DNA of 64,000 nucleotides from Syntrophaceae bacterium (GTDB taxonomy: Bacteria; Desulfobacterota; Syntrophia; Syntrophales; UBA5619), in NCBI GenBank assembly GCA_003141195.1, contig PLLC01000087.1, positions 2,875 to 66,874 of the forward strand, given 5' to 3'. Position numbers and translations under genes: made by a program. The notes under the pieces are model-generated. The model ran no database searches and was not told the DNA's origin. It saw nothing but the letters and a program-made list of their open reading frames with translations. Below are positions 16,255-59,782 of this stretch, piece after piece. The stretch's first letter is position 1; each line of letters opens with the position of its first letter.

Positions 16255-16275
16255 ATCACCTATCCAACGTGCCGT

Positions 16276-17748: not shown

Positions 17749-17780
17749 AACACAATATCTCCTTTCTTTTTTCCGCCGGG

Positions 17781-17857
17781 TCATCACGCCGCATTCGGAA
17801 CCTGGCATCTGTTGATCAAACGCTGCCAGTCATGGTCCACCTGCGTTGCTCCAAACC
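17781..17857 (-). pseudogene. About 75-bp remnant of a 2-oxoacid oxidoreductase beta-subunit 3' end
   Basis: Aligns by eye to 21373..21450, the 3' end of the intact beta-subunit gene (..catctgttgatcaaacgctgccagtcat..). Confidence 0.55.
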
Positions 17858-17886
17858 TGCTCACCCATCAAAACCATGAACGATTA

Positions 17887-19395
17887 TCACGTCGTAATAC
17901 CATCCCGCCAGATACCCATCTCGAAGTACTTGTTGACTTCGGTGTTCGTTCGGACTTCACCATTGGCCACCTTGATGATCAGGGTGAGCAATTCCTCCGT
18001 CAGCGTTTGCATATCCTTTCCACTCAGCAGAGCACCGGCATCGAAGTCGTTCCATTTTCTTTTATGCTTAAAGATGTCGCTGTTCGTGGTCACCCGCAAC
18101 ACTGGCGCCGCAAACCCTCCTGGAGTTCCGCGCCCGGTTGTGAAGAGAATGAGTGTGCAGCCCGCGGCGACCTGGCCGGTGATGCTTACCAGGTCATGCC
18201 CCGGCGCTTCAAAAAGATTAAGGCCGGGAACCTTTAACCTCCTGCCAAAGCGAATGACATCGGCCACCTTGGATTTGCCTCCTTTTTCGATACAACCCAG
18301 GGATTTCTCTTCCAGCGTGGAAAGCCCACCCGCGAAATTTCCCGTGGTGGGATTTCTGCTGACATCGATGCCGTATTTCTTGTAATAAGCTTTGGAGTCG
18401 TTGATCAGCCCGACGATGTCGCGAAACACCCTTTCATCGATCGCCCGATCCATTAGAATCTGCTCGGCGCCGAACATCTCCGGTACTTCCGTCATCACCG
18501 AAGTACCGCCCTGGGCGGTCAGGATGTCGGTGATCTCCCCCACCAGCGGATTTGCGGTCAGACCGGAAAAACCGTCCGAGCCTGCGCAGTTGCTGCCCAC
18601 AATCAGTTTGGATATAGGAACCGTTTCCCGTTGATAGGTTAGGGCGTGGGCGTACAGTTCCCGCAGAAGCTTCAGAGACTCTTCGAATTCATCCTCAACA
18701 TCCTGGTAGGCGATAAATTTGACCCGGGTGGGATCAAAATCTCCGAGGCTCGGTTTAAAGGATGTCAGGTCATTGATCTCACACCCCAGACCGACGAAAA
18801 GGACACCCGCCGCATTGGGGTTTTTCGACATTCCCGCAAGGATCGACCGGGTATAGGACAAATTGAGACCGCTCTCGGCACAACCACACTCGTGGGTAAA
18901 GGGGATGAAGCCGTCGAAATTGGCCGCTGCCGGCATCTCCTTTTCCGCCAAAGTAGCCAGTTTTTCGATGGGCCCGTTGACGCAAAATACGGTGGGAATA
19001 ATATAGATGTAGTTACGAATCCCCACACCACCATCGTTTCGCCGGTAGCCGTTGAAGGTTAATTCTCTGGTGATCAGTGGTTTCATGGCCGGAGCGCGTT
19101 CCGGATGGTACTCATAGGACAGTGCCTCAGTGAGGGCAGATTTCACGTTGTGGGTGTGTACCCATTCCCCTTCCTCGATGTCCCGGGTTGCATAACCGAT
19201 CGGATAACCGTACTTGTGTACCACGCTGCCCTTCTCGATTCTTCGCAGGGCAATTTTGTGGGGAACAGGGATATTAACCTTCACCAAAATGCTTTTTCCT
19301 TTGATATTGATGGTCTCCCCATTCGCAAGCAGTCTGGTCGCCACTGCAACGGGGTCTTTTTCATTGATGACAATCACATCTTTCGTTAACTCCAT
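17887..19395 (-). CDS. UxaA/GarD-family dehydratase, copy 2
   Basis: 502 aa, colinear with copy 1 and about half the residues identical by eye. Same SAF N-terminus and TTGRGTPGG motif. Confidence 0.8.
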   Translation of the reverse strand: MELTKDVIVINEKDPVAVATRLLANGETINIKGKSILVKVNIPVPHKIALRRIEKGSVVHKYGYPIGYATRDIEEGEWVHTHNVKSALTEALSYEYHPERAPAMKPLITRELTFNGYRRNDGGVGIRNYIYIIPTVFCVNGPIEKLATLAEKEMPAAANFDGFIPFTHECGCAESGLNLSYTRSILAGMSKNPNAAGVLFVGLGCEINDLTSFKPSLGDFDPTRVKFIAYQDVEDEFEESLKLLRELYAHALTYQRETVPISKLIVGSNCAGSDGFSGLTANPLVGEITDILTAQGGTSVMTEVPEMFGAEQILMDRAIDERVFRDIVGLINDSKAYYKKYGIDVSRNPTTGNFAGGLSTLEEKSLGCIEKGGKSKVADVIRFGRRLKVPGLNLFEAPGHDLVSITGQVAAGCTLILFTTGRGTPGGFAAPVLRVTTNSDIFKHKRKWNDFDAGALLSGKDMQTLTEELLTLIIKVANGEVRTNTEVNKYFEMGIWRDGITT

Positions 19396-19440
19396 GTTTT
19401 GCCTCCATTATTTCTTCTGAGAAAACCCCCTGCTCCGGGC

Positions 19441-19584
19441 CGAGACCATCACAAATTACCCCTGGGCAAAGTTGACGACATTGACTGCATTGAAAATCAG
19501 GACAAATCCCAGGGCAACCAAGGCATATATTGAGCCCATGGCTAGACCTGCGGCTACCATTTGAAGATTCGTAGACCAATCCAT
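19441..19584 (-). pseudogene. livH: livH 5' fragment (42 codons, then stop)
   Basis: Translates to MDWSTNLQMVAAGLAMGSIYALVALGFVLIFNAVNVVNFAQG-stop, almost identical to the LivH N-terminus at 10878..11003. Confidence 0.8.
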
Positions 19585-19677
19585 TCAAGGTCCTCCTTAG
19601 AGGCATCCAGTCCCCGCATGTAGCCATGCAGCGGGACCGGATGCCTCTCGTGTCTATACGGGCGCGTCGAGAGGTGC

Positions 19678-20820
19678 CTATTTCTTACCCACACTGATGA
19701 TCTTCAGGAGTTTCGGCTGGCCCTTCTCGATCTCAACAATGCTCACCGAACTCAAGCCGTCGCCGTTCGGCGTAAATGAGAAGGTGCCGAGTACGCCTTC
19801 ATATCCCTGAGTGGCCAGGATGGCTTGACGGATTTTGTCGCGATCTTCCCCGGCCTTCTTGATGGCGTTAACCAGGATCTTCAGACCGTCATACGTCCAA
19901 GAGCTGAGCATGTCGGGTTCCTCATTGTATTCCTTCTTGTAGGCATTGCAGTAACGCTTGTTCGCCTCGCTCTGTCCCGGCACGGCATCGACCGCGGCCC
20001 AGATCCCCTCGGCGGCCTCCTGGGCAAGGTTCAGGCTGTCGTTCGATGCGCTGCTGGGCGAACCGAGATACTTGAAGGGGGAGCCGAGTTGGCGTACTTG
20101 GCGCTGGATCACCGCCGTGTCGGGGGAGGGAGAGTAGACGATCATGACCTGCGCCCCGGCATTCTTCAGTGAGAGCAGGAATGCGGTGTAATCCTTGTCT
20201 TTGGGCGTGAACCTCTCCCTTTTAACCATGTTAAGGCCATATTCCTTTGCATATTTTTCGACCAAGTCTCCGCCGCCTTGTCCAAAGGCCTCGGTATCGT
20301 TCAGGATTCCTATTTTGGTGAACTTAGTGTCTTCCTTGATGTACTTCACCATGGCGCTGGCGGCAATAGTGTCATCGGGCCGTACGCGGAACAACCAGGG
20401 GTTCCCCTGCTTGGTGAGGTTGACATTGGTGCCGCCGATTATGGTGGGGATGCCGTAGTTCTTGATGGCATCCGAAGTGGCAAGAATCTGTGTACTTCTT
20501 ACGGAGCCGACCAACGCCAGTACCTTCTCCTGCTCCACGGCCTTCTGTAGCGCCGCCAGTGCACCGGGGTTAGAGGAACGGTTATCCACCATCACGAGGT
20601 TGATCTTCTTTCCATTTATGCCGCCGGCCGCATTGATCTCCTTGAGGGCCAGTTTGATGGACTTGATCTGGAGGGCGCCTTCTGCCGCTGAGTCACCGGT
20701 AATCGGCGGAGTAAATCCAATCTTGATTTCTTCAGCCGCCATTCCAATACCGCTGCCGAAAATGGCCACGATCATGACGGATAAGAAAGTAACCGATAAG
20801 ATGCGCTTTACGTTTGTCAT
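19678..20820 (-). CDS. Periplasmic substrate-binding protein (LivJ/K-like), copy 2
   Basis: Start at MTNVKRILSV (20820). The first 22 residues are identical to copy 1; overall about three quarters are identical by eye. Confidence 0.8.
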   Translation of the reverse strand: MTNVKRILSVTFLSVMIVAIFGSGIGMAAEEIKIGFTPPITGDSAAEGALQIKSIKLALKEINAAGGINGKKINLVMVDNRSSNPGALAALQKAVEQEKVLALVGSVRSTQILATSDAIKNYGIPTIIGGTNVNLTKQGNPWLFRVRPDDTIAASAMVKYIKEDTKFTKIGILNDTEAFGQGGGDLVEKYAKEYGLNMVKRERFTPKDKDYTAFLLSLKNAGAQVMIVYSPSPDTAVIQRQVRQLGSPFKYLGSPSSASNDSLNLAQEAAEGIWAAVDAVPGQSEANKRYCNAYKKEYNEEPDMLSSWTYDGLKILVNAIKKAGEDRDKIRQAILATQGYEGVLGTFSFTPNGDGLSSVSIVEIEKGQPKLLKIISVGKK

Positions 20821-21104
20821 ACCTTCCTCCTCTTTCTGTTTGATAAGTTTCGATAGAACTCGCTCTGTGGCGAACCGATTCAACCTCCAATCCATGCTGT
20901 CTCCAGGGAACTGAACGAACGATCACCCCCTTTCACTTGGTGCATTCCGCTCCATTTGCATTTCGCCTCTGTCGTTACCAACTCTTAAGATATAGGTGTA
21001 GAATTTGACAAAAAATGCCAGTAAATACCAATTTTTAACTCTAGTGGCCGTTTTAACAAAATATTTTGCAGTATGTTCATCAACCCCTTGTCGAGTGCGG
21101 TAGA

Positions 21105-21338
21105 TTAAAGCAGCGGTCTGGATGGGTTAAAGTTGCCCGAGGGTCCCAACGTTGCTTAAGTGCCGTCAATAGAGGAGTCCCACTCCGGCCGTTGGGCCAG
21201 TTCGTACGTGGCGGCTACGGCATTCATGGAAGGCCGAATGATCGGATCATCCACCACATTTTCAATCCGCTTGCCGAACATATAGACTTGCAGCTTGAGT
21301 TTTCTCAGGCTTTCCTCATATTGCCGGGCTGTCATCAT
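21105..21338 (-). pseudogene. abfD: abfD 5' fragment joined out of frame to the last ~27 codons of a GlcD/E-type oxidase gene
   Basis: The 60-aa ORF MMTARQYEESLRKLKLQVYMFGKRIENVVDDPIIRPSMNAVAATYELAQRPEW then diverges. 21105..21188 aligns to 12428..12512, and 21189..21338 aligns to 17599..17748. Confidence 0.8.
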
Positions 21339-21372
21339 GGCAAAATATCTCCTTTCATTCTTTCCGCCGGGG

Positions 21373-22266
21373 TCATCCCACCGCTCTCGGGGCTTGGCAT
21401 CTGTTGATCAAACGCTGCCAGTCATCATCCACCCGCATTTGCATGCGGTCGCGTTCCTCCACGGACATCTTTTTGAACCGGCCCTGATGTTTCAGATAGG
21501 CATCCACGCCTTCCTTCTCAGGCATGGAACTCAACTGCCATGTATCCCCACCGAACACCTCATAAAGCGGAAACACGCGGCTTTTAATGGCCTGCCTGGC
21601 AACCTCGATGGACAGCTCCGTGGCATGCCGCCAGCCGGTCGGGCAGGAGGCAAAGAGATGGATAAATCGCGAACCCTTGATATTTTTCGCTTTTTCCAGC
21701 TTCTCTTTCAGATCCTCCGGCGCGCCGATGCTGGCAGTGGCCGCGTAGGGAATGCGGTGCGCAGCCATGATCTCCACCATGTTTTTCTTCCTCTGACCCT
21801 TCCGGGCCGAATCGGGTGTGGTGGTGGTCCACGCGCCGGCCGGTGTCGCCGAGGAGCGCTGGATACCCGTGTTCATGTAGGCTTCGTTGTCGTAGCAGAT
21901 AAAAAGGATATCATCGTTTCGTTCCACAACACCGGAAAGCGGCTGAAAACCGATATCGAAGGTGCCGCCGTCGCCTGCAAAGGCCAGGACGGTCGTATGA
22001 TCGTTTCCCTGAATGGTCAAACCGGCCTTGATCCCGGCGGCAACGGACGCGGTGGCTCCAAAGGCGACCGAAACCACCGGCACGGTCAGGCAGGTGTAAG
22101 GGTAAATGCCGATAAGGCTTGACCAGCATCCAGCCGTCATCACCACAATCGTATCCTCACCCAGGACCGACAATGTTTGTTGCATGGCCACGGTGGCGCC
22201 GCAGCCGGGACAACCATAGTGACCCGGTATGAACAGTTCCCTCTTCGCCCGGATTTGTTCACTCAT
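21373..22266 (-). CDS. 2-oxoacid:ferredoxin oxidoreductase beta subunit (TPP-binding)
   Basis: CPGCG and GDGGTFDIG motifs. ATGA overlap with the alpha subunit stop. Confidence 0.85.
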   Translation of the reverse strand: MSEQIRAKRELFIPGHYGCPGCGATVAMQQTLSVLGEDTIVVMTAGCWSSLIGIYPYTCLTVPVVSVAFGATASVAAGIKAGLTIQGNDHTTVLAFAGDGGTFDIGFQPLSGVVERNDDILFICYDNEAYMNTGIQRSSATPAGAWTTTTPDSARKGQRKKNMVEIMAAHRIPYAATASIGAPEDLKEKLEKAKNIKGSRFIHLFASCPTGWRHATELSIEVARQAIKSRVFPLYEVFGGDTWQLSSMPEKEGVDAYLKHQGRFKKMSVEERDRMQMRVDDDWQRLINRCQAPRAVG

Positions 22267-23426
22267 GGCAACACCTCCGCCCAAAGCGACATCCCTGCTT
22301 CGACTGCGTTCCCGTATCCGGATATCGCCTGTCGTACCAATGGGATGATCGTATCCACGGTGACATCATTTCCGCCGACACCCGCAACAAAGCCTGTTAC
22401 TTTTAAATCCCCCCGGTGCCCGAAAAGGCCCGCCTTCACCTCCTGGGCCACGATGCCCTCGGCCCCGAAAGAGACATCCCGATCGATGACGATCACATGT
22501 TTGACCTTTGCAATCGCCCTTTGCAACCCTTCCAGGGGAAAGGGCCGGATCATCGCAAGCCGCAGGCTGCCGACCTTTAACCCCTCTTCCCGCAGCCGGT
22601 CGACCGCCAGCCGGATAGTGCCGGTGGCCGTACCGATGCTAACGATGCACAGGTCGGCATCCTCCGTTCGATATGCTTCCACGGTCTTGTGCAATCGGTT
22701 GAAATGGCTGTTGTATTTCTCGGCCACCTGATCCCAGAGCCTTGCCACCGCAAGCGTGTCGCCCTGGCGTTTGTACTTGATGGAGCTGAAGAGGTCTGCC
22801 CCGCATACAATGCTGAAGGTCTTGGGATCGTTCACATCCAGCTTGAGCGACGCATGATAGGGGGGAAGAAAGAGATCCACCGTCTCCTGATCCGGCACAT
22901 CCAGCGGCTCGGAGGTATGGGTTAAATAAAATGCGTCCAGATTGATCATGACCGGCAAAAGCGCCTGTTCGGCAACCGCATAGGCGATCAAAATGGCGTC
23001 GAGCACATCCTGGGCATCGGCGCAGTAATACTGAATCCAGCCGGTGTCGCGCTGGGACAGCGAATCGGTGTGGTCGCAGTACAGGTTCCAGGGGGGGGCC
23101 AAGGCGCGGTTGCAGTTGACCATGACGACCGGCACCCGCTCGCCGGCGGTAAAATGGAGCATTTCATGCATGTAGGCCAGTCCCTGCGAGGAGGTTGCCG
23201 TAAAGGTCCTGGCGCCTGCCAGCGACGCGCCCATGCAACTGGACATGGCCGTGTGCTCCGACTCCACGGGCATGTACTTGGCCTTCAGTTCGCCCCGACC
23301 GATGATATCGGCCAGACTCTCGACAATCACGGTCTGTGGGGTGATCGGATACGCCGAGACCACTTGAACACGGGCCAGTTTTACGGCCATCGTAGCGGCT
23401 TCGGTCCCCATCATGACTTTCTTCAT
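22263..23426 (-). CDS. 2-oxoacid:ferredoxin oxidoreductase alpha subunit
   Basis: MKKVMMGTEAATMAVKLARVQVVSAYPITPQT is a typical N-terminus. ATGA overlap with the upstream gene. Confidence 0.85.
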   Translation of the reverse strand: MKKVMMGTEAATMAVKLARVQVVSAYPITPQTVIVESLADIIGRGELKAKYMPVESEHTAMSSCMGASLAGARTFTATSSQGLAYMHEMLHFTAGERVPVVMVNCNRALAPPWNLYCDHTDSLSQRDTGWIQYYCADAQDVLDAILIAYAVAEQALLPVMINLDAFYLTHTSEPLDVPDQETVDLFLPPYHASLKLDVNDPKTFSIVCGADLFSSIKYKRQGDTLAVARLWDQVAEKYNSHFNRLHKTVEAYRTEDADLCIVSIGTATGTIRLAVDRLREEGLKVGSLRLAMIRPFPLEGLQRAIAKVKHVIVIDRDVSFGAEGIVAQEVKAGLFGHRGDLKVTGFVAGVGGNDVTVDTIIPLVRQAISGYGNAVEAGMSLWAEVLP

Positions 23427-24625
23427 ACGCTCATATCCTCCATTGTGATCACCCCCCGGGGGCATTCATAGGCACAGATGCCGCATCCCTTGCAGTGGTC
23501 CAGGTCGACCGCAACGGCGATATTCTCCCCATCCGGCCGGATACTGGCGTCGGGACAATAGGAGACACACTGCAAACAGAGGTTACAGGTGCCGCACGAG
23601 AGGCAGCGTTCCGCTTCCTGCAGTGCCCGCTCCCGGTCCCATGTTACCTCCTGTTTGGTCTCCGTCTCTGCAGCAGGACCGGAGACCGGAAAACGCTCAA
23701 TCTTTATATTTTCGATGCTTACTGCCTGCAGGGGGAGGTCCGGGGCCGGCTGTGCAAGATCCACCGGGCGCAGACCATCGAAAACCTTCCGGGCCAGCAG
23801 ACGGCCTGCGGCAATGTAATGGGCAATCATGGGCGCCTTGAATGGTGTTAGGTTTTGCGGCAATTTTACGGAGATGATGCCTCCGGTGGCGGTTTCTTCA
23901 TCAAAGGGATTGCAAGCGACCGCACCGGTTGGCACGCTAAAGTCTTCCGAAAGTCCGGTCGGATCCAAAATGACGAGGTCTGCGTTCGACAGCAGTTCGC
24001 CGGGTGTGTCGAAATCGATTACGGCGCCGGTTTCAAGCCTGATATCGGCAAGACGGATCAAGCGGTTGATTTCATGAGACAGCACCTGCGGCTCTATTTT
24101 CCCCGGCGAAAGATCGACAAGCGCCCCGCCCGCCTGGCCGGCGGGGTCCAGGACAACGACCCGGCATCCCCAACAAGCCAGATAAAATGCACAGGAGAGC
24201 CCCAGAGGGCCGGAACCGATGACCGTGACCCGCTGATCGGTTTTATCACTTTTCTCAATTGTGACATCCGTCGCGAGATCACCCAGAAACCGCTCCACCT
24301 TTTGGATGGATATCGTCCGATCTATTGTTCTGCGGATACATTTGGTCTGGCAAGGGTGATAGCACAGGCGGCCGGTCAGACCGGGCAGGGGGTTATAGGC
24401 CAGCAGCAGGGCGAGACCGCCTTCAATATCCCCACGGTTCATGGCACCCAGATGGCGCGGAATCGGAATGCCCGCCGGACAGTTCTGGCTGCAGGGTGCC
24501 AGTTTGTCTGCGACCAGCGGTGTTACATAACGCCAGTCGCCCGTCTGGTTCCAAGCCATGGTGCCGATCGTGGTCGGCGCTGTCGGAAGCTCCGACAACC
24601 TTTGAATGATGATTTTAGTCTGCAT
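23423..24625 (-). CDS. Fusion protein: GltD-like Fe-S/FAD-NAD(P) N-terminal region plus C-terminal 2x[4Fe-4S] ferredoxin (delta-subunit-like)
   Basis: N-terminus has CSQNCPAGIPIP...GRLCYHPCQTKC (GltD small-subunit-like). This is followed by a Rossmann VTVIGSGPLGLSCAFYL and a C-terminal CLSCGTCNLCLQCVSYCP...CKGCGICAYECP. Confidence 0.65.
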   Translation of the reverse strand: MQTKIIIQRLSELPTAPTTIGTMAWNQTGDWRYVTPLVADKLAPCSQNCPAGIPIPRHLGAMNRGDIEGGLALLLAYNPLPGLTGRLCYHPCQTKCIRRTIDRTISIQKVERFLGDLATDVTIEKSDKTDQRVTVIGSGPLGLSCAFYLACWGCRVVVLDPAGQAGGALVDLSPGKIEPQVLSHEINRLIRLADIRLETGAVIDFDTPGELLSNADLVILDPTGLSEDFSVPTGAVACNPFDEETATGGIISVKLPQNLTPFKAPMIAHYIAAGRLLARKVFDGLRPVDLAQPAPDLPLQAVSIENIKIERFPVSGPAAETETKQEVTWDRERALQEAERCLSCGTCNLCLQCVSYCPDASIRPDGENIAVAVDLDHCKGCGICAYECPRGVITMEDMSV

Positions 24626-25193
24626 TCACATCTCCTGATATCCTGAATACTGCCTGATATGCCGCTTCGGCGGCGGCCATGTTCTGTTTAGGGCTCACCG
24701 GTACGCCAGTTTCAATGGCCTCCAGCAGGTTGGAAAGCGCAAGGTCGCCGGAAACCCGGGCATAGGCGCCGAGGATGACGGTGTTAATGATCGGGGCGGT
24801 CTTCGAGCCCAAGCCGTGATGAAGCGCTATTTTCACGGCGTCCACGCCGGCCACTCGAAAGGAGCCCTTGATGGGGTTCTGATTCTCATTCTCCTTGCAA
24901 TTGAGCAGGATCAGTGCATCCGGCTTGGCGCCATGAGCCACATCCACTTTGCGCAGCAGCGAAAAATCCAGCACGATGACGACATCAGGGTTCTTGATGT
25001 CTCCGCGCTCGACAATGGGAGCGCTATCCAGCCTGACGAATGCGGAGACGGCAGCTCCTTTTCGTTCCATACCGAAGGAAGGAAAAGCCTGAACGTAGAG
25101 CCCCTGTTTGAAGTAGGCATGGGCTAAAATTTTTGAAGCGACCACAGCTCCCTGCCCCCCTCTGCCATGGAACCTAATGCCGACCATATTCAT
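24615..25193 (-). CDS. 2-oxoacid:ferredoxin oxidoreductase gamma subunit
   Basis: GRGGQGAVVASKILA motif. Start at MNMVGIR (25193). Confidence 0.8.
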   Translation of the reverse strand: MNMVGIRFHGRGGQGAVVASKILAHAYFKQGLYVQAFPSFGMERKGAAVSAFVRLDSAPIVERGDIKNPDVVIVLDFSLLRKVDVAHGAKPDALILLNCKENENQNPIKGSFRVAGVDAVKIALHHGLGSKTAPIINTVILGAYARVSGDLALSNLLEAIETGVPVSPKQNMAAAEAAYQAVFRISGDVNAD

Positions 25194-25224
25194 ATTCCTC
25201 TCAGTTTTAGCGGTGTCCCGAAAT

Positions 25225-26031
25225 TTATAGTTCACTCAATGAACTTGAGATTTTCCCAGCCGTTTCCGATACCAACTTTGCAAGCGTGTCGCTCGTCTCT
25301 GCAGTTACCCGATTTTTCGGAGCTGAAATACTGATGGCTGCCACACATTCCCCCTTAGAGTTCAATATCGGTGCGCCAACACAGTAGACCCCTACCAGGG
25401 CCTCTTCATCATCGACTGCCACCTTCCTGACCCTGACTTTCTCGATCTCCTTAATCAATTTATCTACAGAAGTAATCGTATTTTGAGTGTATTTTTTTAA
25501 AGATCTATTCAGTCTGTAAATCTGCCGGATATCTTCATTGCTGAAGTATGACAGCAATATCTTGCCGGTTGCGGCACAGTAGCCTGCGAATCTTGCGCCA
25601 GCCGTCGTGGAAATTCGAAGGAGCGCTTCAGATTCCAATCGGTAGATGTAGCGAATTCCATTATATTCCCACACAGCCGCGTTCACCGTTTCCCCGCACC
25701 TCTCGTAGAGTTTCATCAGAAAGGGGGCCATGGCCATGCGAAGAAATCTCTCTCGCTTGGAGTCCATTCCGATTTCCAGCGTTCGCACGCCAAGACCGTA
25801 CATTTTTGTTTTTCTGTTCTGCTGGATGAATTTTCGTGCCACGAGGGTACTCAGGACCCGATGAACCGTTCCCTTCATCATGCCGAGTTTCTGGCAGATC
25901 TCCGTAATGGAGAGATCCCGGCTCTGGTCAATCACTAACTCAAGAATTAAAAGCGCTTTATCAAGTGAGGTTACTCGGTATTTATTTTCGGAATTCGACT
26001 GAGTCTTCGATTTTGATGGCACCTCTTTCAT
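25225..26031 (-). CDS. IclR-family transcriptional regulator
   Basis: N-terminal wHTH (SLDKALLILELV...LSITEICQKLGMMKGTVHRVLSTL) and a C-terminal IclR effector domain. Start at MKEVPSK (26031). Confidence 0.85.
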   Translation of the reverse strand: MKEVPSKSKTQSNSENKYRVTSLDKALLILELVIDQSRDLSITEICQKLGMMKGTVHRVLSTLVARKFIQQNRKTKMYGLGVRTLEIGMDSKRERFLRMAMAPFLMKLYERCGETVNAAVWEYNGIRYIYRLESEALLRISTTAGARFAGYCAATGKILLSYFSNEDIRQIYRLNRSLKKYTQNTITSVDKLIKEIEKVRVRKVAVDDEEALVGVYCVGAPILNSKGECVAAISISAPKNRVTAETSDTLAKLVSETAGKISSSLSEL

Positions 26032-27111: not shown

Positions 27112-27150
27112 GACGAAATGAATCTAACAGCGAAAGGAGGAACAGGACAC

Positions 27151-28041
27151 ATGATGAAAAAAGTATTGCGTGGGGTTATCTTTCTGTTTGCGATTGCCGT
27201 TGGCGTACCATTGATGTTTTCAGGGATCCTGGGCGCGGCGGAATCGGGAAGTGCGGGACCGGATAAGATCGTCCAGGGCGGAGCGAATCTGACTGTGGCC
27301 GAGTCCAAGAGGTTGATCGGCAAGGCTGTGGCCCAGATGCCGATCGTCAAGAATGCCCTTGAAAACGGCATGATCATTATCATCAAGGGGACAACCACTC
27401 GCTACGTGGCCGAGGAGATCACGGGGCAGAAAATCGTTCCTGCGGAATTTGTGACGGGGAGACTTATGCCGAAACAGCCCGAGTTACTCCCCAAGGGAAA
27501 GTCCGTTAACAACGTGATTCTTGAGAAAGGCAAGTTACTTGATATCCCGCTTCCTGACGCCGTGAAGAAGTTGAAACCAGGCGACGTGGTCATGAAGGGG
27601 GCGAATGCCCTGGACTACAAGAACAAGTTAGCGGCGGGCAATATTATGGTCGGTCCCCACCTGGGTTTTGTGCCGGGTCCGGATGGGGGAACGACAGGGA
27701 TCACAATGCCCTTCATCGTGGCACGCAAGGTTCACCTCGTCATTCCGGTCGGCCTCGAGAAGCAGGTTGTAGGGGATATAGTGGATGTGACCTTGAAGAT
27801 GCGTGAGCCGATAGAGTCGTTGAACGTTCTTCCTTCGATGTGGCTCCTCACGGGCGAGATCGTCACGGAGTTGGAGGCCATTAAAATGCTGACCGGTGCA
27901 ACTGCCTTTCAGGCCAATGCAGGGGGTGTCAACGGTGCGGAAGGTGGATCATGGCTTGTTTTCAGGGGAACCCGTGATCAAGTAGAGAAGGCCATGGAAT
28001 TGGCAAAATCCGTGAAAGGGGAACCGCCTTATACGGAATAG
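27151..28041 (+). CDS. Hypothetical exported protein
   Basis: AGGAGG RBS, then MMKKVLRGVIFLFAIAVGVPLMFSGILGAAES signal-like N-terminus. No family recognised. Confidence 0.5.
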   Translation: MMKKVLRGVIFLFAIAVGVPLMFSGILGAAESGSAGPDKIVQGGANLTVAESKRLIGKAVAQMPIVKNALENGMIIIIKGTTTRYVAEEITGQKIVPAEFVTGRLMPKQPELLPKGKSVNNVILEKGKLLDIPLPDAVKKLKPGDVVMKGANALDYKNKLAAGNIMVGPHLGFVPGPDGGTTGITMPFIVARKVHLVIPVGLEKQVVGDIVDVTLKMREPIESLNVLPSMWLLTGEIVTELEAIKMLTGATAFQANAGGVNGAEGGSWLVFRGTRDQVEKAMELAKSVKGEPPYTE

Positions 28042-29383: not shown

Positions 29384-29743
29384 ATGAAAATGGTTAGAAA
29401 AAGAAGGATGTCTGCAAAGATATTCGGTTATCTGTTATCGCTGCTTCTCCTCAGCGTGTTTACAGCGCAGCTACTTTTTGCGGCCGACGTATTCAATTCT
29501 GACAAACACATTAAGACAGGGCTCAACTGCGAGAGCTGCCATGGGGCGGCGAAAGTGGCTGCGGGGGCAGAGGTCGGCATGGCCAAGTGTCTGAGTTGTC
29601 ACGGACCGTATGAAAAACTTGCGAAGCGGACGGAAACAATGACCCGTAACCCGCATACAAGTCCGCATTACCTCGACTGCAATGTGTGCCACCATGGACA
29701 CAGCGCTGACAAAAACGATTGCGACCGTTGTCACGGAAAATAA
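29384..29743 (+). CDS. Small periplasmic tetraheme c-type cytochrome (c3/STC-like)
   Basis: Signal peptide plus four CxxCH motifs (CESCH, CLSCH, CNVCH, CDRCH) in 119 aa. GGGAGG RBS before ATG 29384. Confidence 0.85.
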   Translation: MKMVRKRRMSAKIFGYLLSLLLLSVFTAQLLFAADVFNSDKHIKTGLNCESCHGAAKVAAGAEVGMAKCLSCHGPYEKLAKRTETMTRNPHTSPHYLDCNVCHHGHSADKNDCDRCHGK

Positions 29744-29958
29744 GGTTCATCCGGCAAGCAAACATTTTACCCGGAAGTAGGTATCTATGAAGATCAGGCC
29801 GGGGGAGGTTGTCCCAGAAAACGGCGGCATGACCCCTGCAAAGGGTTCATCGAAGGACCGTCATACTGTCCTGCTGATGGCAGGAATCTTGATAGCATTT
29901 TTGTGGCAAAACGTTGGCGGATAAGACTATTCACAAATCAGGAGGCAGTGCTGTGGGC

Positions 29959-32700
29959 ATGAATTGGCGTTTTTTCCCAAGGACACTCAATGTCTTAACC
30001 ACACTTGCCCTTATCCCCTGCATCAGCGTGCTCTTGTGCTGCAATGCGGCCGTAGCTGATAACGGAACTCCGAAACGCCTGACGAACGCGCAACCGGGAG
30101 ACTGCGCTTCGTGCCATGCGGACGGCAAACAAGTCCTCCCGAGTGGGCACATGGCCACGAAGACAATGAACCTTCAACAGTGCCTTATGTGCCACAAGAG
30201 GGACAAAACCCCCATAAAGGATAAGCTGCCTACGAGCCATATGCACATGCTCTCGGAAATTTCATGCCAGAATTGTCACGAGGGAAAAGAGTCATTTTCC
30301 AGGGTGGGCATGAAGGCATGCATTGCGTGTCACAGTATTGATACTCTAGCGAAAACCCCCGCCAAGGACGAGAAGAAAATACCGAACCCGCACAATTCCC
30401 ACTATGGCACCGATGCAGAGTGTTCAGAGTGCCATCGCCAGCATGCCAAGTCAAAATTCCTTTGTGCGGAGTGCCATAATTTTACTAACATAACACCCTC
30501 GCCTATGACCCCACTTGCCTTCAATTCAAAGGTCTCGAGTGAAAAGGTGCCTGCGACAGTGCCTGAGGTTGAAAGTGGGGTATCACAGCCTGCCGCCCCG
30601 GCCCCTGCAGAGCCTCCCGGCACGGTTCTGAAGTGCAGCACGTGTCACTCTGGGTCTCAGTATCAGAAATATTTCTCCCAAACTGCTCACGGCAAGCTGG
30701 GTTGTGCCTCCTGTCATAAGGGCATCAAGGACTTCAACAGACATATGCAGGGGAAGGAAAAGCCCGAAATCGTGTCCTGCCTCACCTGTCATAAGGACAC
30801 CCAGAAGCAGAGCTTCCACGCCACGGTGAAGAAGATTTCGTGCCTCCAGTGCCACACCGATATGCACCCCAAGGAGGCTGCTGGCTCGAAAATAGGCAAG
30901 TCGGCCTCAGCCGCACCTGCAAGTGCTCCTGGAGCGGCCATGGAATGCAGCACGTGTCATTCAGGTCCCAAGTATCAGCAGCATTTTGCCCAGACATCGC
31001 ATAGGGCGCTCACCTGCGCGACCTGTCACCTGGCTATACAAGATTTTACTAGACACATGCAAAAGAAAGAAAAGTCCAAGCTGCTCTCCTGCGCAGTCTG
31101 TCATAGGAACATCGAGAAACAATACGGAAAAAGCTATCATGCCCTTGAGGCGAAGATCTCATGTCTTCAGTGCCACACCGATATCCATCCCGAAAAGGCC
31201 CTGCCCGCGAAAAAAGGGAAGTCGGAGTCCGTACAGACCTGTCTGAGATGCCACAGCGACGAGAATAAGTACTTGAAAAAAGGGCACACAGCAAAGGCCT
31301 TGGCAGGCAATGCCGATGCAGCCGTGTGCAGCGACTGCCACGGTATTCACGGCACACCAGTGTTCGCTGCGACGGACAGGGGGATTGCAGACAAGAGGAT
31401 TTACTACACTCAACTATGTATCCAGTGCCACCGGGAGGGGGGAGTAGCGGGGCAATACAGGGTTTTCCCCATGGCAGTGGGCACATATGGAGAGACATAT
31501 CATGGAAAGGTGATGAAGCTTGGGTACCCTGATCAGGTAGCCGGCTGCGCGGACTGCCACAGCGCCCACAACATTCTGCCTGCGGGCGATTCCGCGTCGG
31601 CCCTGAACCCCGGCCAGCTGGTGAAGACCTGTGGGAAGTGCCACCAAGGCTTCCACCCGCGTTTCGTCTCCTACGTGCCGCACCCTAACCCAGATAACCC
31701 GAAAGGGTTCTTCGGATTGTACCTGGCCAAGAAGTTTATGATCGCGCTTCTGGCCGCGGTATTCGGTTTCTTCTGGATCCACATCCTGCTCTGGTGGCGC
31801 AAGGCCTATGCGGAAAAGAGCTGCCTCGTCAAGGGAGGCCTCGAGTTCAGAGCAGAGCTTCCTGAAGAGGAAGGCCGTCAGTATGTCAAGAGGTTCTCCG
31901 TGCGTGACAGGGGCATGCACGTGGTTCTCATCCTCTCCTTCTTCGGCCTGGTCGTTTCGGGATTCCCGCTGAAATACCCCGATATCTCCTGGGCCAGGGC
32001 ATTCATAACCTTGTTCGGGGGTGTCGAGAACGCGGGCATCATTCACCGCACCAGCGCAGTGGTCATGTGGCTGCTGTTCCTGTACACTGGCTGGCTCTCA
32101 CTCAAGTTCCTGTTTCCGGGCTTCAGGTTCAAGGGATGGGTGGACCGGCTCTTCGGACCTGACTCGCTGTTCCCGCGGATCAAGGACTTCCAGGACTGCT
32201 GGGGCATGTTCAAGTGGTTTTTCAACGCAGGAGAGAGGCCGCATTTCGACCGTTGGACCTACTGGGAGAAATTCGATTTCATGGCAGTCTTCTGGGGCAT
32301 GTTCATCATCGGGATCTCGGGAGTCATCATGTCGATACCCGAGTGGTCATCGCATGTCATGCCCGGCTGGATGATCAACATCCTCTACTTGGCCCATTCC
32401 GAGGAGGCATTCCTGGCAGCGGTATTCATCTTCACGATCCATTTCTTCAACAACCATCTGGTCCCGGACAAGTTCCCCTTGGAAAGGAACATCTTCACGG
32501 GAAGCTACACCGTGGAAGCGCTCAAGAGGGAACGTCCGCTGGAGTACGAGCGCATCCTTGAGGAAAACAGGCTTGAGGAGATCAAATGCAAAGGCCCGGG
32601 CGCCGGGATACAGCTCTTTGCCGGGGTGTTCGGAATTGCCAGCGTACTGCTCGGCCTCGCCCTGACTGCTCTTATATTCTGGGCAATGTTCATGATATGA
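29959..32700 (+). CDS. 19-heme c-type cytochrome fused to a C-terminal FdnI/HydC-like cytochrome b membrane domain (CbcL-type architecture)
   Basis: 19 CxxCH motifs counted in the first ~580 residues. These are followed by multiple TM helices with conserved His ([45 protein letters not shown]). Start is ATG 29959 or GTG 29953 after AGGAGG at 29940. Confidence 0.85.
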
Positions 32701-32790: not shown

Positions 32791-33150
32791 TCAAATGGCA
32801 ATCATCACTTCTATTCCATCCTTGTGGGCCAGTTCCTTGTCCATCTGCGCATCGTCGCCCTGGTGACAGGCGGTGCATCCCTTCGCGAAAGGCTCGTCCT
32901 CCCCGATCAGTTTCCTGTCGACGAGGAAACCGCGGTGGTACGTTTCCGCCGAAACCGGCGGAGGCGCCCCCGCTCACCCCTCCGCCTCGCCGGTCGGAAT
33001 CTCCGGCACCTTGCAGAGTTTTTTCAGCGCGGCTTCATCGGTATAGCAGGTGACGCAGGAGCTCTCGTTCTTGGCCGTGGTCGACGTGACAAGGACTAAC
33101 AGGACGATCAGGGAAAAGAGAATGGCACCCGTAACGACTCGACCCCTCAC
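32791..33150 (-). pseudogene. Degraded c-type cytochrome N-terminal fragment with an in-frame TGA
   Basis: GTG 33150 with an AAGGAG RBS, then a signal/TM segment, CVTCY, TGA at 32974..32976, then the same frame continues through ..KGCTACHQG.. to a stop at 32791. Confidence 0.45.
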
Positions 33151-33447: not shown

Positions 33448-34839
33448 ATGGGCATGGCCAGTAAATACACCGGTTTGAGGGAATTTCTGACCTCCATACG
33501 GCTGGCGGTTGCCCTGTTGAGCCTGATCGCCCTGGGGGCCGTGCTGGGAACGGTCATTCCTCAACAGGTGGAAGGAGAGACCTTTGCGGCCCGTCTCCAC
33601 CCCGCCCTGCTGGCCCTTTTCAAAGCGTTGCAGCTTTTCGACGTCTACCATTCCACCTGGTTTGTCCTGCTGCTCCTCCTGCTGCCCGTCAACCTGATCG
33701 CCTGTTCCCTGGACCGCTTTCCCGCGGCCTGGCGGCAGTTTCGCGGCGGCGCCGCGCCGGATGGAACGGAGCGCCTCGCGGATCTCCCCCCGGAACGGAT
33801 CGTCGCGGCGGACAGGCCCCCTGCGGAGGAGGCCTCCCGCCTGGAGGCCCTCCTCCGGAAACGCTGCGGGCGGGTCCAAAAGGTGGAGACGCCCCAGGGG
33901 TTCGTCCTCGCCGGCGGGAAGGGCGCCTTCTCCCGTTTCGGGGTCTTTGTCGTCCACCTGGGCGTCCTGCTGCTGATCGCGGGGGGGCTCGCCGGCGCCA
34001 TCTTCGGCGTCCGGGGTTACGTGGAAATCGCGGAGGGGGATACCGCAAACACGATGCAGTTCAGGGGCGGAAAGGGGGCAGAGACCCTTCCCTTCGCCAT
34101 CCGCTGCGACCACTTCACCGTGGAGTACTATGAGAACGGCGCCCCGAAGGTGTTCCGTTCCGATCTGACCTTTATCCAGGATGGGAAAACCGTCCGGCAG
34201 GGGGCGCTCCTCGTCAACCACCCGATCGCCTTCGGCGGCCTGCGTTTCTATCAGGCGAGCTACGGCCTCCTCCCCGGCGGCCGTCTAAATCTGTCCTATG
34301 TTAGAGGGGATGGAAAGGCCAACGAGCGGGATGTGGCCGTCGGCGACCGTTTCGCCCTTCCCGGAGGGGAGGGAGAGGTGGAGGTCCTCCGCGCCGAGAA
34401 CGACCTTATGCGGATGGGACCGGCCGTGAAGCTCTCCGTCACATCAACACGAGGGAATGTCCAGGTCTGGGTCTTCCAGAACATCGAGCGGATTAAGGAG
34501 GCGAATCCGGGGGTGCTCGCGCAGGTCCCTCTGATGAACCCCGGTCTTTTTGCCCCTTACCTCTTTTCCATGCAGAAAAAGGGAGAGGGGTTCTACACGG
34601 TGCTTCAGGCGGCCCGTGATCCGGGCGTCCCCCTCGTCGCCGGAGGCGCGTCCCTGCTCATCGTCGGTCTCATGATCACCTTCTTTTTCTCCCACCGCCG
34701 GTTCCGGATCGTCCTGGAGGAGGAGAAGGGGAAAAGCCGGATCGGCCTTACCGGATCGAGCAACCGGGACCCGGTCGGTCTGGAAAACGAGATGAATCAA
34801 CTGCTCGCGGAGATCGGAAAGGCGGAGGGGCATTCATGA
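33448..34839 (+). CDS. resB: Cytochrome c biogenesis protein ResB/Ccs1 (System II)
   Basis: N-terminal TM pattern, FDVYHSTWF, and a large periplasmic domain. Start is ATG 33448 or 33454. Confidence 0.85.
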   Translation: MGMASKYTGLREFLTSIRLAVALLSLIALGAVLGTVIPQQVEGETFAARLHPALLALFKALQLFDVYHSTWFVLLLLLLPVNLIACSLDRFPAAWRQFRGGAAPDGTERLADLPPERIVAADRPPAEEASRLEALLRKRCGRVQKVETPQGFVLAGGKGAFSRFGVFVVHLGVLLLIAGGLAGAIFGVRGYVEIAEGDTANTMQFRGGKGAETLPFAIRCDHFTVEYYENGAPKVFRSDLTFIQDGKTVRQGALLVNHPIAFGGLRFYQASYGLLPGGRLNLSYVRGDGKANERDVAVGDRFALPGGEGEVEVLRAENDLMRMGPAVKLSVTSTRGNVQVWVFQNIERIKEANPGVLAQVPLMNPGLFAPYLFSMQKKGEGFYTVLQAARDPGVPLVAGGASLLIVGLMITFFFSHRRFRIVLEEEKGKSRIGLTGSSNRDPVGLENEMNQLLAEIGKAEGHS

Positions 34840-35678
34840 GCGATTCGGCGATTCTGAGCGGAGTGACCTTTGTCTACCTGCTCTCATTTCTTTTATACCT
34901 CGTCCGGATGGTCCGGGGGAAGGAGTTCTGGGGAAGCGCGGCCTCCTGGATCGCCCGGATCGGTTTCCTGCTGCACAGCGCGGCCCTCCTGCTGCGCTGG
35001 AAAAGCTCCTACGATCTGGGGATCGGCCATGCGCCGCTCGCGAACTTCTATGAGTCGCTCATCTTCTTCGCCTGGGCGGTCCTGCTTCTCTACCTCATCA
35101 TCGAATGGAAAACGTGCAGCCGCAGCCTCGGCGTCTTCGTGATCCCCGTCGCCTTTCTCCTTCTGGCCTTCGCCTCGATCTCCCCGGGCGTCAACGACCG
35201 GATCCAGCCCCTCATCCCGGCCCTGCAGAGCAACTGGCTCACCGTCCATGTCCTCACCTGCTTTCTGGGCTACGCCTCCTTCGCGATGGCCTTCGCCCTG
35301 GGAATCATGTATCTGCTCAAAGGGAAAGGTCAAGACGGCGGGAAGGAGGCGGGTGCGTTTTTCCGCCTGATCCCGGCCGCCAATGCGATCGAGGAACTCC
35401 TCTATCAGAGCGTAGTGCTCGGTTTTGTGTTGCTGAGCCTCGGGATCATGACGGGGTCCGTCTGGGCTCAATATGCCTGGGGTTCTTACTGGAGCTGGGA
35501 TCCGAAGGAGACCTGGTCGCTCATCACCTGGATCGTCTACGCGGTGATGCTCCACGCCCGTTCCGTCCGGGGCTGGCGGGGGAAGCGGATGGCCGTCATG
35601 GCTCTTGTCGGCTTCGCCTCCGTCCTGTTCACCTACCTCGGGGTGAACTACCTCGACAGCCTCCACAGCTATTTCTGA
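34836..35678 (+). CDS. ccsA: Cytochrome c biogenesis protein CcsA/ResC (heme handling)
   Basis: WAQYAWGSYWSWDPKETWSL W-rich heme-binding motif. 4-nt overlap with resB. Confidence 0.9.
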   Translation: MSDSAILSGVTFVYLLSFLLYLVRMVRGKEFWGSAASWIARIGFLLHSAALLLRWKSSYDLGIGHAPLANFYESLIFFAWAVLLLYLIIEWKTCSRSLGVFVIPVAFLLLAFASISPGVNDRIQPLIPALQSNWLTVHVLTCFLGYASFAMAFALGIMYLLKGKGQDGGKEAGAFFRLIPAANAIEELLYQSVVLGFVLLSLGIMTGSVWAQYAWGSYWSWDPKETWSLITWIVYAVMLHARSVRGWRGKRMAVMALVGFASVLFTYLGVNYLDSLHSYF

Positions 35679-37638: not shown

Positions 37639-37743
37639 ATGAAGACCGTCACGGGCCGCTTCGTCAGCAAAAGGAAGATGTGCCCGGGTGTGATTGCACG
37701 GGAAGACCCGGCTCGGCGCACGGGGCGGCGGACAGGAGGTCTG

Positions 37744-38649
37744 ATGAAATTCAAGGGTATCGTCACCGTCATTCGCGTTCCCTTTCTGATCCTAACTTTG
37801 ATTCTCGGGATTCTCGGGGCCGGTGTCGCCTGGTACGAATCGAGACGGTTCGGATCGCCGTTCCACATGGGGTACGCGCTCCTGGCGACGTTCGGTTTGC
37901 TGGTCGCCCATGCGGCGGTCAACATTTTCAACGAGTATTTTGACTCCCGGAGCGGTCTGGATTTCAAAACCCGCCGGACTCCGTTCAGCGGGGGCAGCGG
38001 CGCCGTCCCCAGCGGCCTGCTGACGCTGCAACAGGCCCTGTGGCTCGGCATCGCCTGCTTCGTCTTCATTGTCCCGATCGGCGTCTTCTTCACGCTGGAG
38101 AAGGGGTGGATGCTCGTGCCGCTGCTGGTGATCGCCACGCTTCTGATCGTCCTGTACACCCCCTTCATTCTCAAGATGGGCTATCCCGAGTGGTCGCCGG
38201 GTCTGGGCCTGGGCATCCTGCCCGTCATGGGCGCCTATTTTGTCCATACCGGCGAATATACGCTGACTGCCTTCATCGCCTCGATGCCGTCCTATTTCCT
38301 GGTGCACAATCTGCTTCTGCTCAACGAGTTCCCGGACGTCGAGGCGGATATTACGGTCAAAAGGCGGACGCTGCCGATCGTTTTCGGCAAAAAGAGGGCG
38401 GCCGTCGTTTTCTCCCTGTTTACCGTATTGGTCTATCTCTGGATCGTCGGGGCGGTGATGCTGCATTACATGCCCGCATTTACACTTCTGGCCCTGCTGA
38501 CGCTGCCCATCGCCCTGCAGGTGATCCGGGGGTCGTTCCGGTATGACGAGATGGAGCTCTTCCTGCCGGTCATGATGAAGAACGTCCAACTGGTATTGCT
38601 GACCCAGGCGCTCATTGCGGCGGGATATATCCTGGGCGGAATCTTCTGA
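37744..38649 (+). CDS. UbiA-family aromatic prenyltransferase (MenA-like)
   Basis: NIFNEYFDSRSGLD and NEFPDVEADITVKRRTLPIVFG Asp-rich motifs, and about 8-9 TM segments. AGGAGG precedes ATG 37744. Confidence 0.75.
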   Translation: MKFKGIVTVIRVPFLILTLILGILGAGVAWYESRRFGSPFHMGYALLATFGLLVAHAAVNIFNEYFDSRSGLDFKTRRTPFSGGSGAVPSGLLTLQQALWLGIACFVFIVPIGVFFTLEKGWMLVPLLVIATLLIVLYTPFILKMGYPEWSPGLGLGILPVMGAYFVHTGEYTLTAFIASMPSYFLVHNLLLLNEFPDVEADITVKRRTLPIVFGKKRAAVVFSLFTVLVYLWIVGAVMLHYMPAFTLLALLTLPIALQVIRGSFRYDEMELFLPVMMKNVQLVLLTQALIAAGYILGGIF

Positions 38650-52874: not shown

Positions 52875-53633
52875 CTATGATTTTTTCAGCATCATCAACT
52901 CGTCATCCATGTTGTGGCGGATGCAATCCAGCCGAGGCGAAGCCATTAAGAGACTTTCTGAGGCTGTCCGCTTCAGACGAAACGGGAACAGGCTTGTGTT
53001 ATCCAGCAGCTCCGCGAGCCTTGTCGAGCCGTTAGCCTTCGCATGAAGGGATGCTTCAATCAACCATGCAATGAGCTGAGGATCGTCAATGGATACAGGC
53101 AACCCCCGACGATAGACGCCCTTTGTATCGGTTTCCTGCAGCACATCCCAGGCGATAAAAGATCTGAGGACGTAACGAACCCTTCGGAAAACTGATTCCC
53201 GCTCACCGTACTGTTCACAGATACGGCGCTGAACTTGTTCCGCCGTGATGGTTTCCTGAAGCCGCAGCAACCGCCCTACTTGGCCCGATACGGCGCTCCA
53301 AAAGGGATAAGTCGCCATGACCATGGCCCAATGGATCGCCAAGCGCTCCCCGCCCGATTTTATACGCAGCAACTCCAAACCGCTTTCCCTGAATTTGGCA
53401 AGTTCCCTTGGTCCGGATAACCAGACGTTCATCAAAATAGTCACGGTTTTAGAAAGCGAACCCCGGACAGTTGGACTGGAGGTGGGAAAACTGGTTGCTA
53501 AAAATTCCACCATGCTTTGCTTGACTGTGTCCGGAGGATTGCCGGCCAAAGCAAGCTGCGCCACACGTTCCAACCATTCCAAGCGAACGATCCTGTCAAT
53601 GCCAATCTGCTGTATTCGACTGTTGGGTTTCAT
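52875..53633 (-). CDS. BREX-associated helical protein, in the position and size expected for type-3 BrxA
   Basis: 252 aa, ATGA-coupled to the pglZ stop, last gene of the operon. The BrxA assignment rests on position only. Confidence 0.35.
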   Translation of the reverse strand: MKPNSRIQQIGIDRIVRLEWLERVAQLALAGNPPDTVKQSMVEFLATSFPTSSPTVRGSLSKTVTILMNVWLSGPRELAKFRESGLELLRIKSGGERLAIHWAMVMATYPFWSAVSGQVGRLLRLQETITAEQVQRRICEQYGERESVFRRVRYVLRSFIAWDVLQETDTKGVYRRGLPVSIDDPQLIAWLIEASLHAKANGSTRLAELLDNTSLFPFRLKRTASESLLMASPRLDCIRHNMDDELMMLKKS

Positions 53634-56920: not shown

Positions 56921-56923
56921 GAA

Positions 56924-59779: not shown

Positions 59780-59782
59780 GGT

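Follow-up and report, generated by a model that had tools for sequence, protein, structure and literature searches.

CbcL (GSU0274) of Geobacter sulfurreducens is a nine-heme cytochrome c fused to a di-heme cytochrome b; it acts as a menaquinol oxidase for low redox potential and releases protons to the cytoplasm (bioRxiv 10.1101/2022.08.31.506072; PMC9129911). Zhong and Shi catalogued 138 CbcL/MtrH/MtoC homologs from 15 phyla in 2018, with lengths of 416 to 1034 residues, 3 to 23 CX2CH motifs, and mostly six transmembrane (TM) helices (PMC6295460). Here, we describe a further member of this known, widespread, and already surveyed family, encoded in a 64,000-nucleotide stretch of DNA from a Syntrophaceae bacterium (contig PLLC01000087.1, positions 2,875 to 66,874; herein the window). 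The protein carries 19 heme-binding motifs in front of its membrane domain. Seen against Geobacter CbcL alone, a 19-heme bc fusion appears exceptional, and a preliminary description of the window had called it unusually long; it is actually a common, catalogued form of a large family. What we contribute is the dissection of the protein into modules and the reductase-linked gene context of its clade.

Several described proteins serve as points of comparison. MtoC and MtrH of iron-oxidizing and iron-reducing Betaproteobacteria (Gallionella, Dechloromonas, and Rhodoferax) belong to the same family and have 8 to 9 hemes fused to six TM helices; their b domain shares ∼40% identity with that of the window protein, and their heme spacing is unlike it. 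Their genes are often clustered with genes for 10-heme MtrA-like proteins and, according to the 2018 survey, with mtoAB/mtrAB (PMC6295460), none of which is found in the window. The closest published entries are the 925-aa Syntrophus sp. proteins OPY82910.1 (PtaU1.Bin005) and OPY10732.1 (PtaB.Bin138), which are listed with 19 motifs in Table S2 of the same survey (PMC6295460). Their motifs start at 50, 75, 103, 121, 154, 168 and so on, compared with 49, 75, 103, 121, 155, 169 and so on in the window protein; the spacing pattern is equal throughout, six TM helices are present, and the difference lies in the first linker between heme blocks, which is longer by 15 residues in the Syntrophus proteins. 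For these proteins the coordinates have been published, without a module dissection or a function.

A CbcL-type unit extended by heme cassettes

The gene and its parts are as follows, with residues of the protein numbered from ATG 29959.

29940..29945, + strand: AGGAGG ribosome-binding site, 7 nt 5' of GTG 29953, read directly from the letters
29953..32700, + strand: gene for a CbcL-family multiheme cytochrome c/di-heme cytochrome b fusion
29959..30057, + strand: Sec-type signal peptide, residues 1 through 33, hydrophobic peak at residues 8 through 36, cleavage between AAVA and DNG judged by eye
30091..30483, + strand: heme block 1, hemes 1 through 6, residues 45 through 175; hemes 3 through 6 are a tetraheme module of the flavocytochrome-c3/small tetraheme cytochrome (STC) type
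30484..30624, + strand: linker 1, residues 176 through 222, rich in Pro, Ala, Ser, and Thr
30625..30858, + strand: heme block 2, hemes 7 through 10, residues 223 through 300, a tandem copy of hemes 11 through 14 in block 3
30859..30939, + strand: linker 2, residues 301 through 327, rich in Ala, Ser, Gly, and Pro
30940..31647, + strand: heme block 3, hemes 11 through 19, residues 328 through 563, a CbcL-like nine-heme core
31729..32697, + strand: six-helix membrane domain, residues 591 through 913, comprising TM0, an FdnI-type four-helix core (about residues 640 through 866), and the C-terminal TM5

The order of the parts is that of CbcL: a signal peptide, a periplasmic CxxCH domain, and six TM helices with an FdnI-type b core. 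GSU0274 is 619 aa long, with motifs at residues 34, 57, 82, 105, 129, 158, 186, 229, and 257 and TM helices that start at residues 285, 351, 399, 477, 511, and 589 (PMC6295460, Table S2). Its motif spacing (23, 25, 23, 24, 29, 28, 43, and 28 residues) is closely matched by that of hemes 11 through 19 of the window protein (23, 25, 24, 26, 29, 30, 43, and 28 residues), and the helix spacing of the window protein almost equals the published TM coordinates. Residues 329 through 908 are colinear with the whole mature form of a nine-heme protein that has the CbcL pattern (L013; 41% identity over 594 aa, E = 7e-146), and residues 330 through 911 share 47% identity over 584 aa with a 617-aa nine-heme protein (P0248). 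Judged by these alignments, hemes 11 through 19 and the membrane domain form a complete unit of CbcL architecture. The preliminary description, which had proposed an expanded CbcL type of about double the heme number, is borne out on this point: the spacing of the nine-heme core and of the TM helices is near that of GSU0274, and ten hemes are extra. These ten lie N-terminal to the core in two blocks on low-complexity linkers and bring the length to 913 aa, compared with 619 aa in CbcL; the two proteins also differ in origin (Desulfuromonadia for CbcL and a Syntrophaceae-like lineage for the window protein).

Counted by regular expression, CxxCH motifs number exactly 19, as in the preliminary description, and all of them fall between residues 49 and 558; the 913-aa protein has no CxxxCH, CxxxxCH, or CxxCK variants. 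Shuffled sequences of the same composition (n = 20,000) contain 0.11 CxxCH motifs on average and 3 at most. All 38 cysteines of the 557-residue periplasmic part sit inside CxxCH motifs, and the periplasmic domain has 40 histidines, which would suffice to ligate every one of the 19 hemes in bis-His fashion.

Of the ten extra hemes, six belong to block 1 and four to block 2. In block 1, PF14537 matches residues 95 through 174, and residues 102 through 184 match the tetraheme domain of Shewanella Fcc3 (Protein Data Bank [PDB]: 1QO8; E = 2.7e-6), so that hemes 3 through 6 resemble the tetraheme modules of the Fcc3/Ifc3 flavocytochromes and of STC/CctA. They differ from Fcc3 in being fused to a quinol dehydrogenase rather than to a flavoprotein. 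Block 2 is a duplication within the protein: residues 223 through 314 and 327 through 420 share 55% identity (BLASTP, E = 3e-39). Relatives within the same clade (47 to 73% identity) have 11 hemes (arranged as 2+9), 15 hemes (6+9 or 2+4+9), or 19 hemes (6+4+9), and block 2 is missing from the 15-heme (6+9) and the 11-heme forms; because of these heme counts, we regard both four-heme cassettes as independently present or absent.

Across 11 orthologs, all three heme blocks are essentially fixed in length (block 1, at 130 to 131 aa, is nearly invariant), unlike both connecting segments. Linker 1 consists to 62% of Pro, Ala, Ser, Thr, and Gly and ranges from 39 to 60 aa; linker 2 has 70% of these residues and ranges from 24 to 32 aa. 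The lowest predicted local distance difference test (pLDDT) values of a full-length AlphaFold2 model fall in linker 1. We infer that the linkers are flexible, and therefore the arm is better called three blocks on flexible linkers than a continuous 19-heme wire; the single-polypeptide electron conduit of the preliminary description is, to this extent, unproven. By homology, the protein is made up of a complete CbcL-type unit, to which a stub of two hemes at the N terminus and two optional cassettes of four hemes each are added.

The membrane domain is an FdnI-type cytochrome b

Both hydropathy and an AlphaFold model of the membrane domain (pLDDT 84.8, predicted TM-score [pTM] 0.81) place six helices 3' of the last heme motif. 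We aligned the C-terminal domains of 20 diverse family members and found five membrane histidines invariant in all 20: H608, H654, H696, H813, and H828. On its own, the domain of the window protein is hard to recognize. When isolated, it matches neither PF01292 nor any other Pfam cytochrome b model even at E ≤ 10, reaches 22 bits on TIGR01583 (cutoff 116), and has no phmmer match among PDB sequences; it scores below all curated FdnI and PF01292 thresholds.

These failed searches are overturned by evidence at the level of profile and fold, which points to FdnI. PF01292 is matched individually by 18 of the 20 family members (best E = 1.2e-17), and the family profile aligns to residues 3 through 212 of the 217 residues of Escherichia coli FdnI (PDB: 1KQF, chain C) with E = 2.7e-13. 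In this alignment H654, H696, H813, and H828 fall on the FdnI heme ligands H18, H57, H155, and H169. A Foldseek search with the domain model returns 1KQF_C as the sole confident match (probability 1.00; TM-score 0.79 normalized to FdnI), with hydrogenase-1 cytochrome b as a weaker second structural match. The membrane domain is thus, by this indirect route, an FdnI-type di-heme cytochrome b. The conserved histidines of FdnI/HydC-type cytochrome b noted in the preliminary description are confirmed in the four aligned ligands; the PF01292 search that it had named fails for the single sequence and succeeds at the level of the family.

The likeness to FdnI covers the four-helix di-heme core, the four His ligands, and the loop before helix III. 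The most conserved motif of the family, R765-W-T-Y-W-E-K-F-D773, lies in front of helix III and aligns to FdnI residues 108 through 116, which we take to line the pocket for menaquinone or 2-heptyl-4-hydroxyquinoline N-oxide (HQNO) near the cytoplasmic heme. Sequence identity to FdnI is ∼15%, and helices TM0 and TM5 are additions of the window protein; FdnI docks a molybdenum/iron-sulfur dimer, and the b domain of the window protein is instead fused to a multiheme c domain. The domain obeys the positive-inside rule, with 7, 9, and 9 Lys and Arg residues in the predicted cytoplasmic loops compared with 1 and 0 in the periplasmic ones. These loop charges fit a topology with the heme arm outside, TM0 running out-to-in, the four FdnI helices, a cytoplasmic tail, and TM5.

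Two further histidines may have a bearing on cofactor content. H608, invariant in all 20 aligned members, lies toward the cytoplasmic side of the extra helix TM0 and has no FdnI counterpart. In most distant family members, TM2 has a second histidine 14 residues after the ligand of the periplasmic-side heme (bP), at which position the window clade has Thr (T710). Either residue could belong to a third heme or to a quinone site in part of the family.

Nineteen-heme proteins within the family

A profile of the C-terminal domain matches, at E ≤ 1e-30, the representatives of 1,212 clusters formed at 50% identity. Nineteen motifs are present in 40 of 120 homologs, most of which have the b domain, with a subset of ∼680 aa that lacks it; among the best 80 loci from species-representative genomes, 17 encode 19 hemes, and others encode 21 and 23. 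In the published catalogue, the third of the three parts of Table S2 has 13 entries with 19 motifs, the two Syntrophus proteins among them, so that the table holds at least 13 (PMC6295460).

The majority of the other 19-heme proteins (e.g., L021, L031, L037, and P0028) form a separate lineage from Bacteroidota, Calditrichota, Krumholzibacteriia, Acidobacteriota, Latescibacterota, and others. They resemble the window protein in heme number, in having the same b domain, and in length (about 920 to 950 aa), with full-length identity of 28 to 30%. They differ in motif spacing, in which the pattern 37, 23, 30, 28, 45, 28, 30, 23 occurs twice and is followed by 30, 28, which corresponds to an 8-heme duplication on an 11-heme base. 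In the b-domain tree, too, they form a group of their own away from the window clade, which suggests that their expansion was independent.

The two lineages appear to have reached exactly 19 hemes through different duplications (9+4+6 and 11+8), and 19 is the commonest large heme count in both. It is conceivable, though we consider it improbable, that 19 hemes represent a selected physical length, with an arm that would span the periplasm, or reach across it by swinging on its linkers, and could so wire the quinol pool straight to partners in the outer membrane or the periplasm without soluble carriers. A natural split form also exists: at one locus (L086, 5001–7990), the 19-heme cytochrome has one TM helix, at its C terminus, and the stop of its gene overlaps the start of a second gene, which encodes a PF01292 cytochrome b of 312 aa; a fused c–b paralog of 669 aa lies just upstream.

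Gene context

Three genes close to the cytochrome gene in the window had been put forward as associated with it.

29384..29743, + strand: free periplasmic tetraheme cytochrome c of the c3/STC type, 4 CxxCH motifs, PF14537 E = 3e-16
33448..34839, + strand: ResB, the CcsA partner in System II cytochrome c maturation, PF05140 E = 3.5e-99; start inferred at M71 of the listed open reading frame (ORF)
34836..35678, + strand: CcsB/CcsA heme-handling subunit of System II, PF01578; TIGR03144 274 bits compared with a cutoff of 188

The free tetraheme cytochrome shares 34% identity with hemes 3 through 6 of the large protein, with all four CxxCH motifs in register; its match to CctA is below threshold. 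It is a possible redox partner of the 19-heme cytochrome. The ResB and CcsB genes are likewise real. What is not conserved is the adjacency of these genes to the cytochrome gene: the tetraheme gene adjoins it in none of the five relatives whose loci we examined, and we rejected the idea of a conserved tetraheme partner. The maturation pair, described earlier as dedicated, also adjoins the cytochrome gene in none of the five; in the window it lies ∼750 bp downstream, past the remnant of an opposite-strand gene. We rejected a dedicated role for it and consider that the pair is probably the general maturation machinery of the organism.

In close relatives, the genes upstream of the cbcL-like gene are of another kind. 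In three relatives, a heme-less flavoprotein with a twin-arginine translocation (Tat) signal is encoded directly upstream; it matches urocanate reductase (E = 4e-80) and residues 112 through 567, the flavin part, of Shewanella Fcc3 (E = 2.5e-77). This is the part that is normally fused to the tetraheme module, which is here found on the 19-heme-type protein. In two relatives, a Tat-signal Psr/Arr-like molybdoenzyme, an iron-sulfur subunit, and a NarJ/TorD-like chaperone are encoded directly upstream. Within these runs, there is no separate membrane anchor gene between the reductase-type genes and the cbcL-like gene. The reductase-type sets, with either or both kinds per locus, occupy 5308–6864 in L082, 894–6855 in L083, 1970–3520 in L084, and 2779–6868 in L085.

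Proposed function and alternatives

On the strength of these sequence comparisons, we favor, as the probable reading, a CbcL-family menaquinol:cytochrome c oxidoreductase whose enlarged periplasmic arm serves periplasmic partners. As the general function, a transfer of electrons, in one direction or the other, between quinol and the c hemes of the periplasm is likely; that the arm acts as a hub for periplasmic partners is a narrower proposal, to which we give slightly less than even weight. In the proposed mechanism, the FdnI-type core would hold two b hemes, bC near the cytoplasm (ligated by H654 and H828) and bP near the periplasm (H696 and H813). By analogy with FdnI and CbcL, (methyl)menaquinol would be oxidized beside heme bC on the cytoplasmic side; protons would go to the cytoplasm and electrons would cross the membrane outward via the two b hemes, and the membrane potential would therefore assist delivery to low-potential hemes. 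The corresponding arrangement proposed for CbcL gains no proton motive force, is assisted by the membrane potential, and suits low-potential acceptors (bioRxiv 10.1101/2022.08.31.506072). From the b hemes, electrons would enter the nine-heme CbcL-like core and move on through the duplicated four-heme block to the terminal six-heme block with its flavocytochrome-c3/STC-type tetraheme, which would pass them to periplasmic partners. The candidate partner in the window is the adjoining free tetraheme cytochrome; in close relatives, the partners are probably the Tat-exported heme-less Fcc3/urocanate-reductase-like flavoprotein and the Psr/Arr-like molybdoenzyme.

Because the genes of relatives are paired with the Fcc3-type flavoprotein and the Psr/Arr-like molybdoenzyme, the context suggests for CbcL-type proteins of this Syntrophaceae-like group a general role as quinol dehydrogenases that serve periplasmic reductases, and not one as components of extracellular transfer. 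For Syntrophus aciditrophicus, a reverse redox loop has been described that is based on methylmenaquinone and includes a membrane-bound formate dehydrogenase (bioRxiv 10.64898/2026.08.18.745454); by analogy, this logic would accommodate an FdnI-type quinol oxidase that delivers electrons to periplasmic hemes. If confirmed, the proposal would refine the reading of multiheme cytochromes of syntrophs, which are often regarded as a sign that electrons pass directly between species.

A neighbor-joining tree of 174 b domains speaks for the CbcL-type core, in that the window clade groups with L013, apart from MtoC/MtrH-type proteins. Several observations weigh against this assignment. The tree is without bootstrap support, and the b-domain identities lie close together (43% to L013 compared with 40 to 41% to MtoC-type proteins). 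The link to GSU0274 is made through published coordinates, nine-heme proxies, and the published catalogue. The full-length model (built with 17 homologs; mean pLDDT 49.4, pTM 0.36) is not usable to judge heme packing, that is, to distinguish one continuous chain from blocks swinging on linkers. The partner genes of the relatives, for an Fcc3-type flavoprotein and a molybdoenzyme, are absent from the 64-kb window, and the tetraheme gene that is present there does not adjoin the cytochrome gene in the five relatives examined. Finally, the direction of electron flow is not readable from sequence.

The strongest competing explanation is extracellular or direct interspecies electron transfer, in which the heme arm would carry electrons to an outer-membrane conduit and from there to Fe(III), an electrode, or a syntrophic partner. 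CbcL itself does so in Geobacter, and the preliminary description had drawn a link to extracellular acceptors accordingly. Other multiheme genes, 10-heme MtrA-like genes included, occur within ∼6 kb at 46 of 84 family loci; the nearest named relatives of the window protein are Syntrophaceae/Syntrophus, and multiheme cytochromes were reported to be expressed in about half of the surveyed syntrophic fatty-acid-degrading species of Desulfobacterota and Spirochaetota (PMC7382037). The window and its clade look different. No multiheme ORF occurs in the 64 kb besides the tetraheme gene and the gene remnant, and a scan of the ∼20 larger flanking genes reveals no porin-cytochrome conduit. Another multiheme gene is found near none of the five window-clade loci, where MtrA-type decaheme, porin, and extracellular cytochrome neighbors are all absent and periplasmic reductases are encoded instead. 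The extracellular role is thus without support from gene context for the window protein, and we regard it as unlikely.

Somewhat less likely still is the reverse direction, in which electrons from a periplasmic c3 pool fed by hydrogenase or formate dehydrogenase would reduce menaquinone at the cytoplasmic face and generate proton motive force as FdnGHI does, making the protein a functional analogue of Qrc. The FdnI-type domain runs in this sense in formate dehydrogenase-N (1KQF), a c3-type tetraheme cytochrome is encoded next door, and iron reducers as well as iron oxidizers have CbcL/MtoC homologs, with both directions proposed for the family (PMC6295460). Against it, the window genes scanned include neither a hydrogenase nor a formate dehydrogenase gene, and the fumarate/urocanate-reductase-like and Psr/Arr-like neighbors in relatives fit quinol oxidation better.

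That the gene is an assembly artefact, a chimera, or a non-functional pseudogene is refuted for practical purposes: the one observation in its favor is a public gene call of just 651 aa, which is an internal-Met call with identical sequence, and the full 913- to 915-aa, 19-heme protein is encoded on at least eight independently assembled contigs, with colinear orthologs at 52 to 73% identity in which every CxxCH motif and every b-heme ligand is invariant.

Start site and annotation of the gene

A single uninterrupted ORF (29914–32700, +) holds the whole cytochrome gene, and a split into separate c and b subunits by sequencing error, which the preliminary description had raised as a possibility, is rejected by the same independent assemblies. 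The likely start is GTG 29953, which gives 915 aa and at which the 915-aa gene calls of NCBI and ENA begin; the alternative, ATG 29959, gives 913 aa. The NCBI, ENA, and Logan calls range from 913 to 915 aa. The 651-aa call comes from JGI/IMG (protein P0121 on a 93-kb contig), corresponds to the C-terminal 651 residues of the full protein, and is labeled "cytochrome b subunit of formate dehydrogenase"; it hides 8 of the 19 hemes.

Other genes in the window

The gene remnant between the cytochrome gene and ResB is a small ORF (32791–33150, −). Its ribosome-binding site is good, it encodes a signal anchor and a single CTACH motif, and it has an in-frame TGA (32974–32976) followed by a GC-rich hairpin. 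At two metagenome loci (L087, 3001–4353; L088, 1182–2537), a homologous frame runs for ∼450 codons; it encodes 11 CxxCH motifs and contains just one TGA, at the position equal to that in the window. The peptide after the TGA, AGAPPPVSAETYHRGFLVDRK, is identical between the window and these loci, and the hairpin is nearly so; the next gene at both loci encodes a rhodanese. From its sequence features, the frame at these loci looks like that of a multiheme cytochrome that contains selenocysteine. The copy in the window is a remnant, both truncated and degenerate, with CVTCY in place of CIICH and a frame that stops 60 aa past the TGA. The selenoprotein MccSep/ExtKL has five hemes and selenocysteine near residue 325 (PMC13510729); its architecture differs from the 11 CxxCH motifs of the TGA-containing frame, and membership of that group is not shown.

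The flanks of the window encode an amino-acid ATP-binding cassette (ABC) transporter, an IclR regulator, thiamine biosynthesis proteins, and an efflux pump. Two genes upstream of the cytochrome gene, in the same orientation, is a 307-aa protein with an N-terminal signal or anchor (27118–28041, +), for which we found no Pfam family and at most a weak NCBIfam match. A UbiA-family prenyltransferase gene (37639–38649, +) lies between ThiC and ThiE. It is named MenA (1,4-dihydroxy-2-naphthoate octaprenyltransferase) by JGI, falls well below every curated MenA cutoff (110 bits compared with 277), and was not used as evidence.

A catabolic cluster (12428–25235, −) includes a fused GlcD–GlcE-like flavin adenine dinucleotide (FAD) oxidase of 842 aa, a GlcF/LdhH-like CCG iron-sulfur protein, an HpaB-family enzyme, a protein of the altronate/galactarate dehydratase family, and four 2-oxoacid:ferredoxin oxidoreductase subunits. 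Toward the other end, a cluster resembling the bacteriophage exclusion (BREX) defence systems (53630–63846, −) encodes a PglZ-domain protein, a 951-aa DNA methylase, and a DUF6079 protein that is cut by the end of the window.

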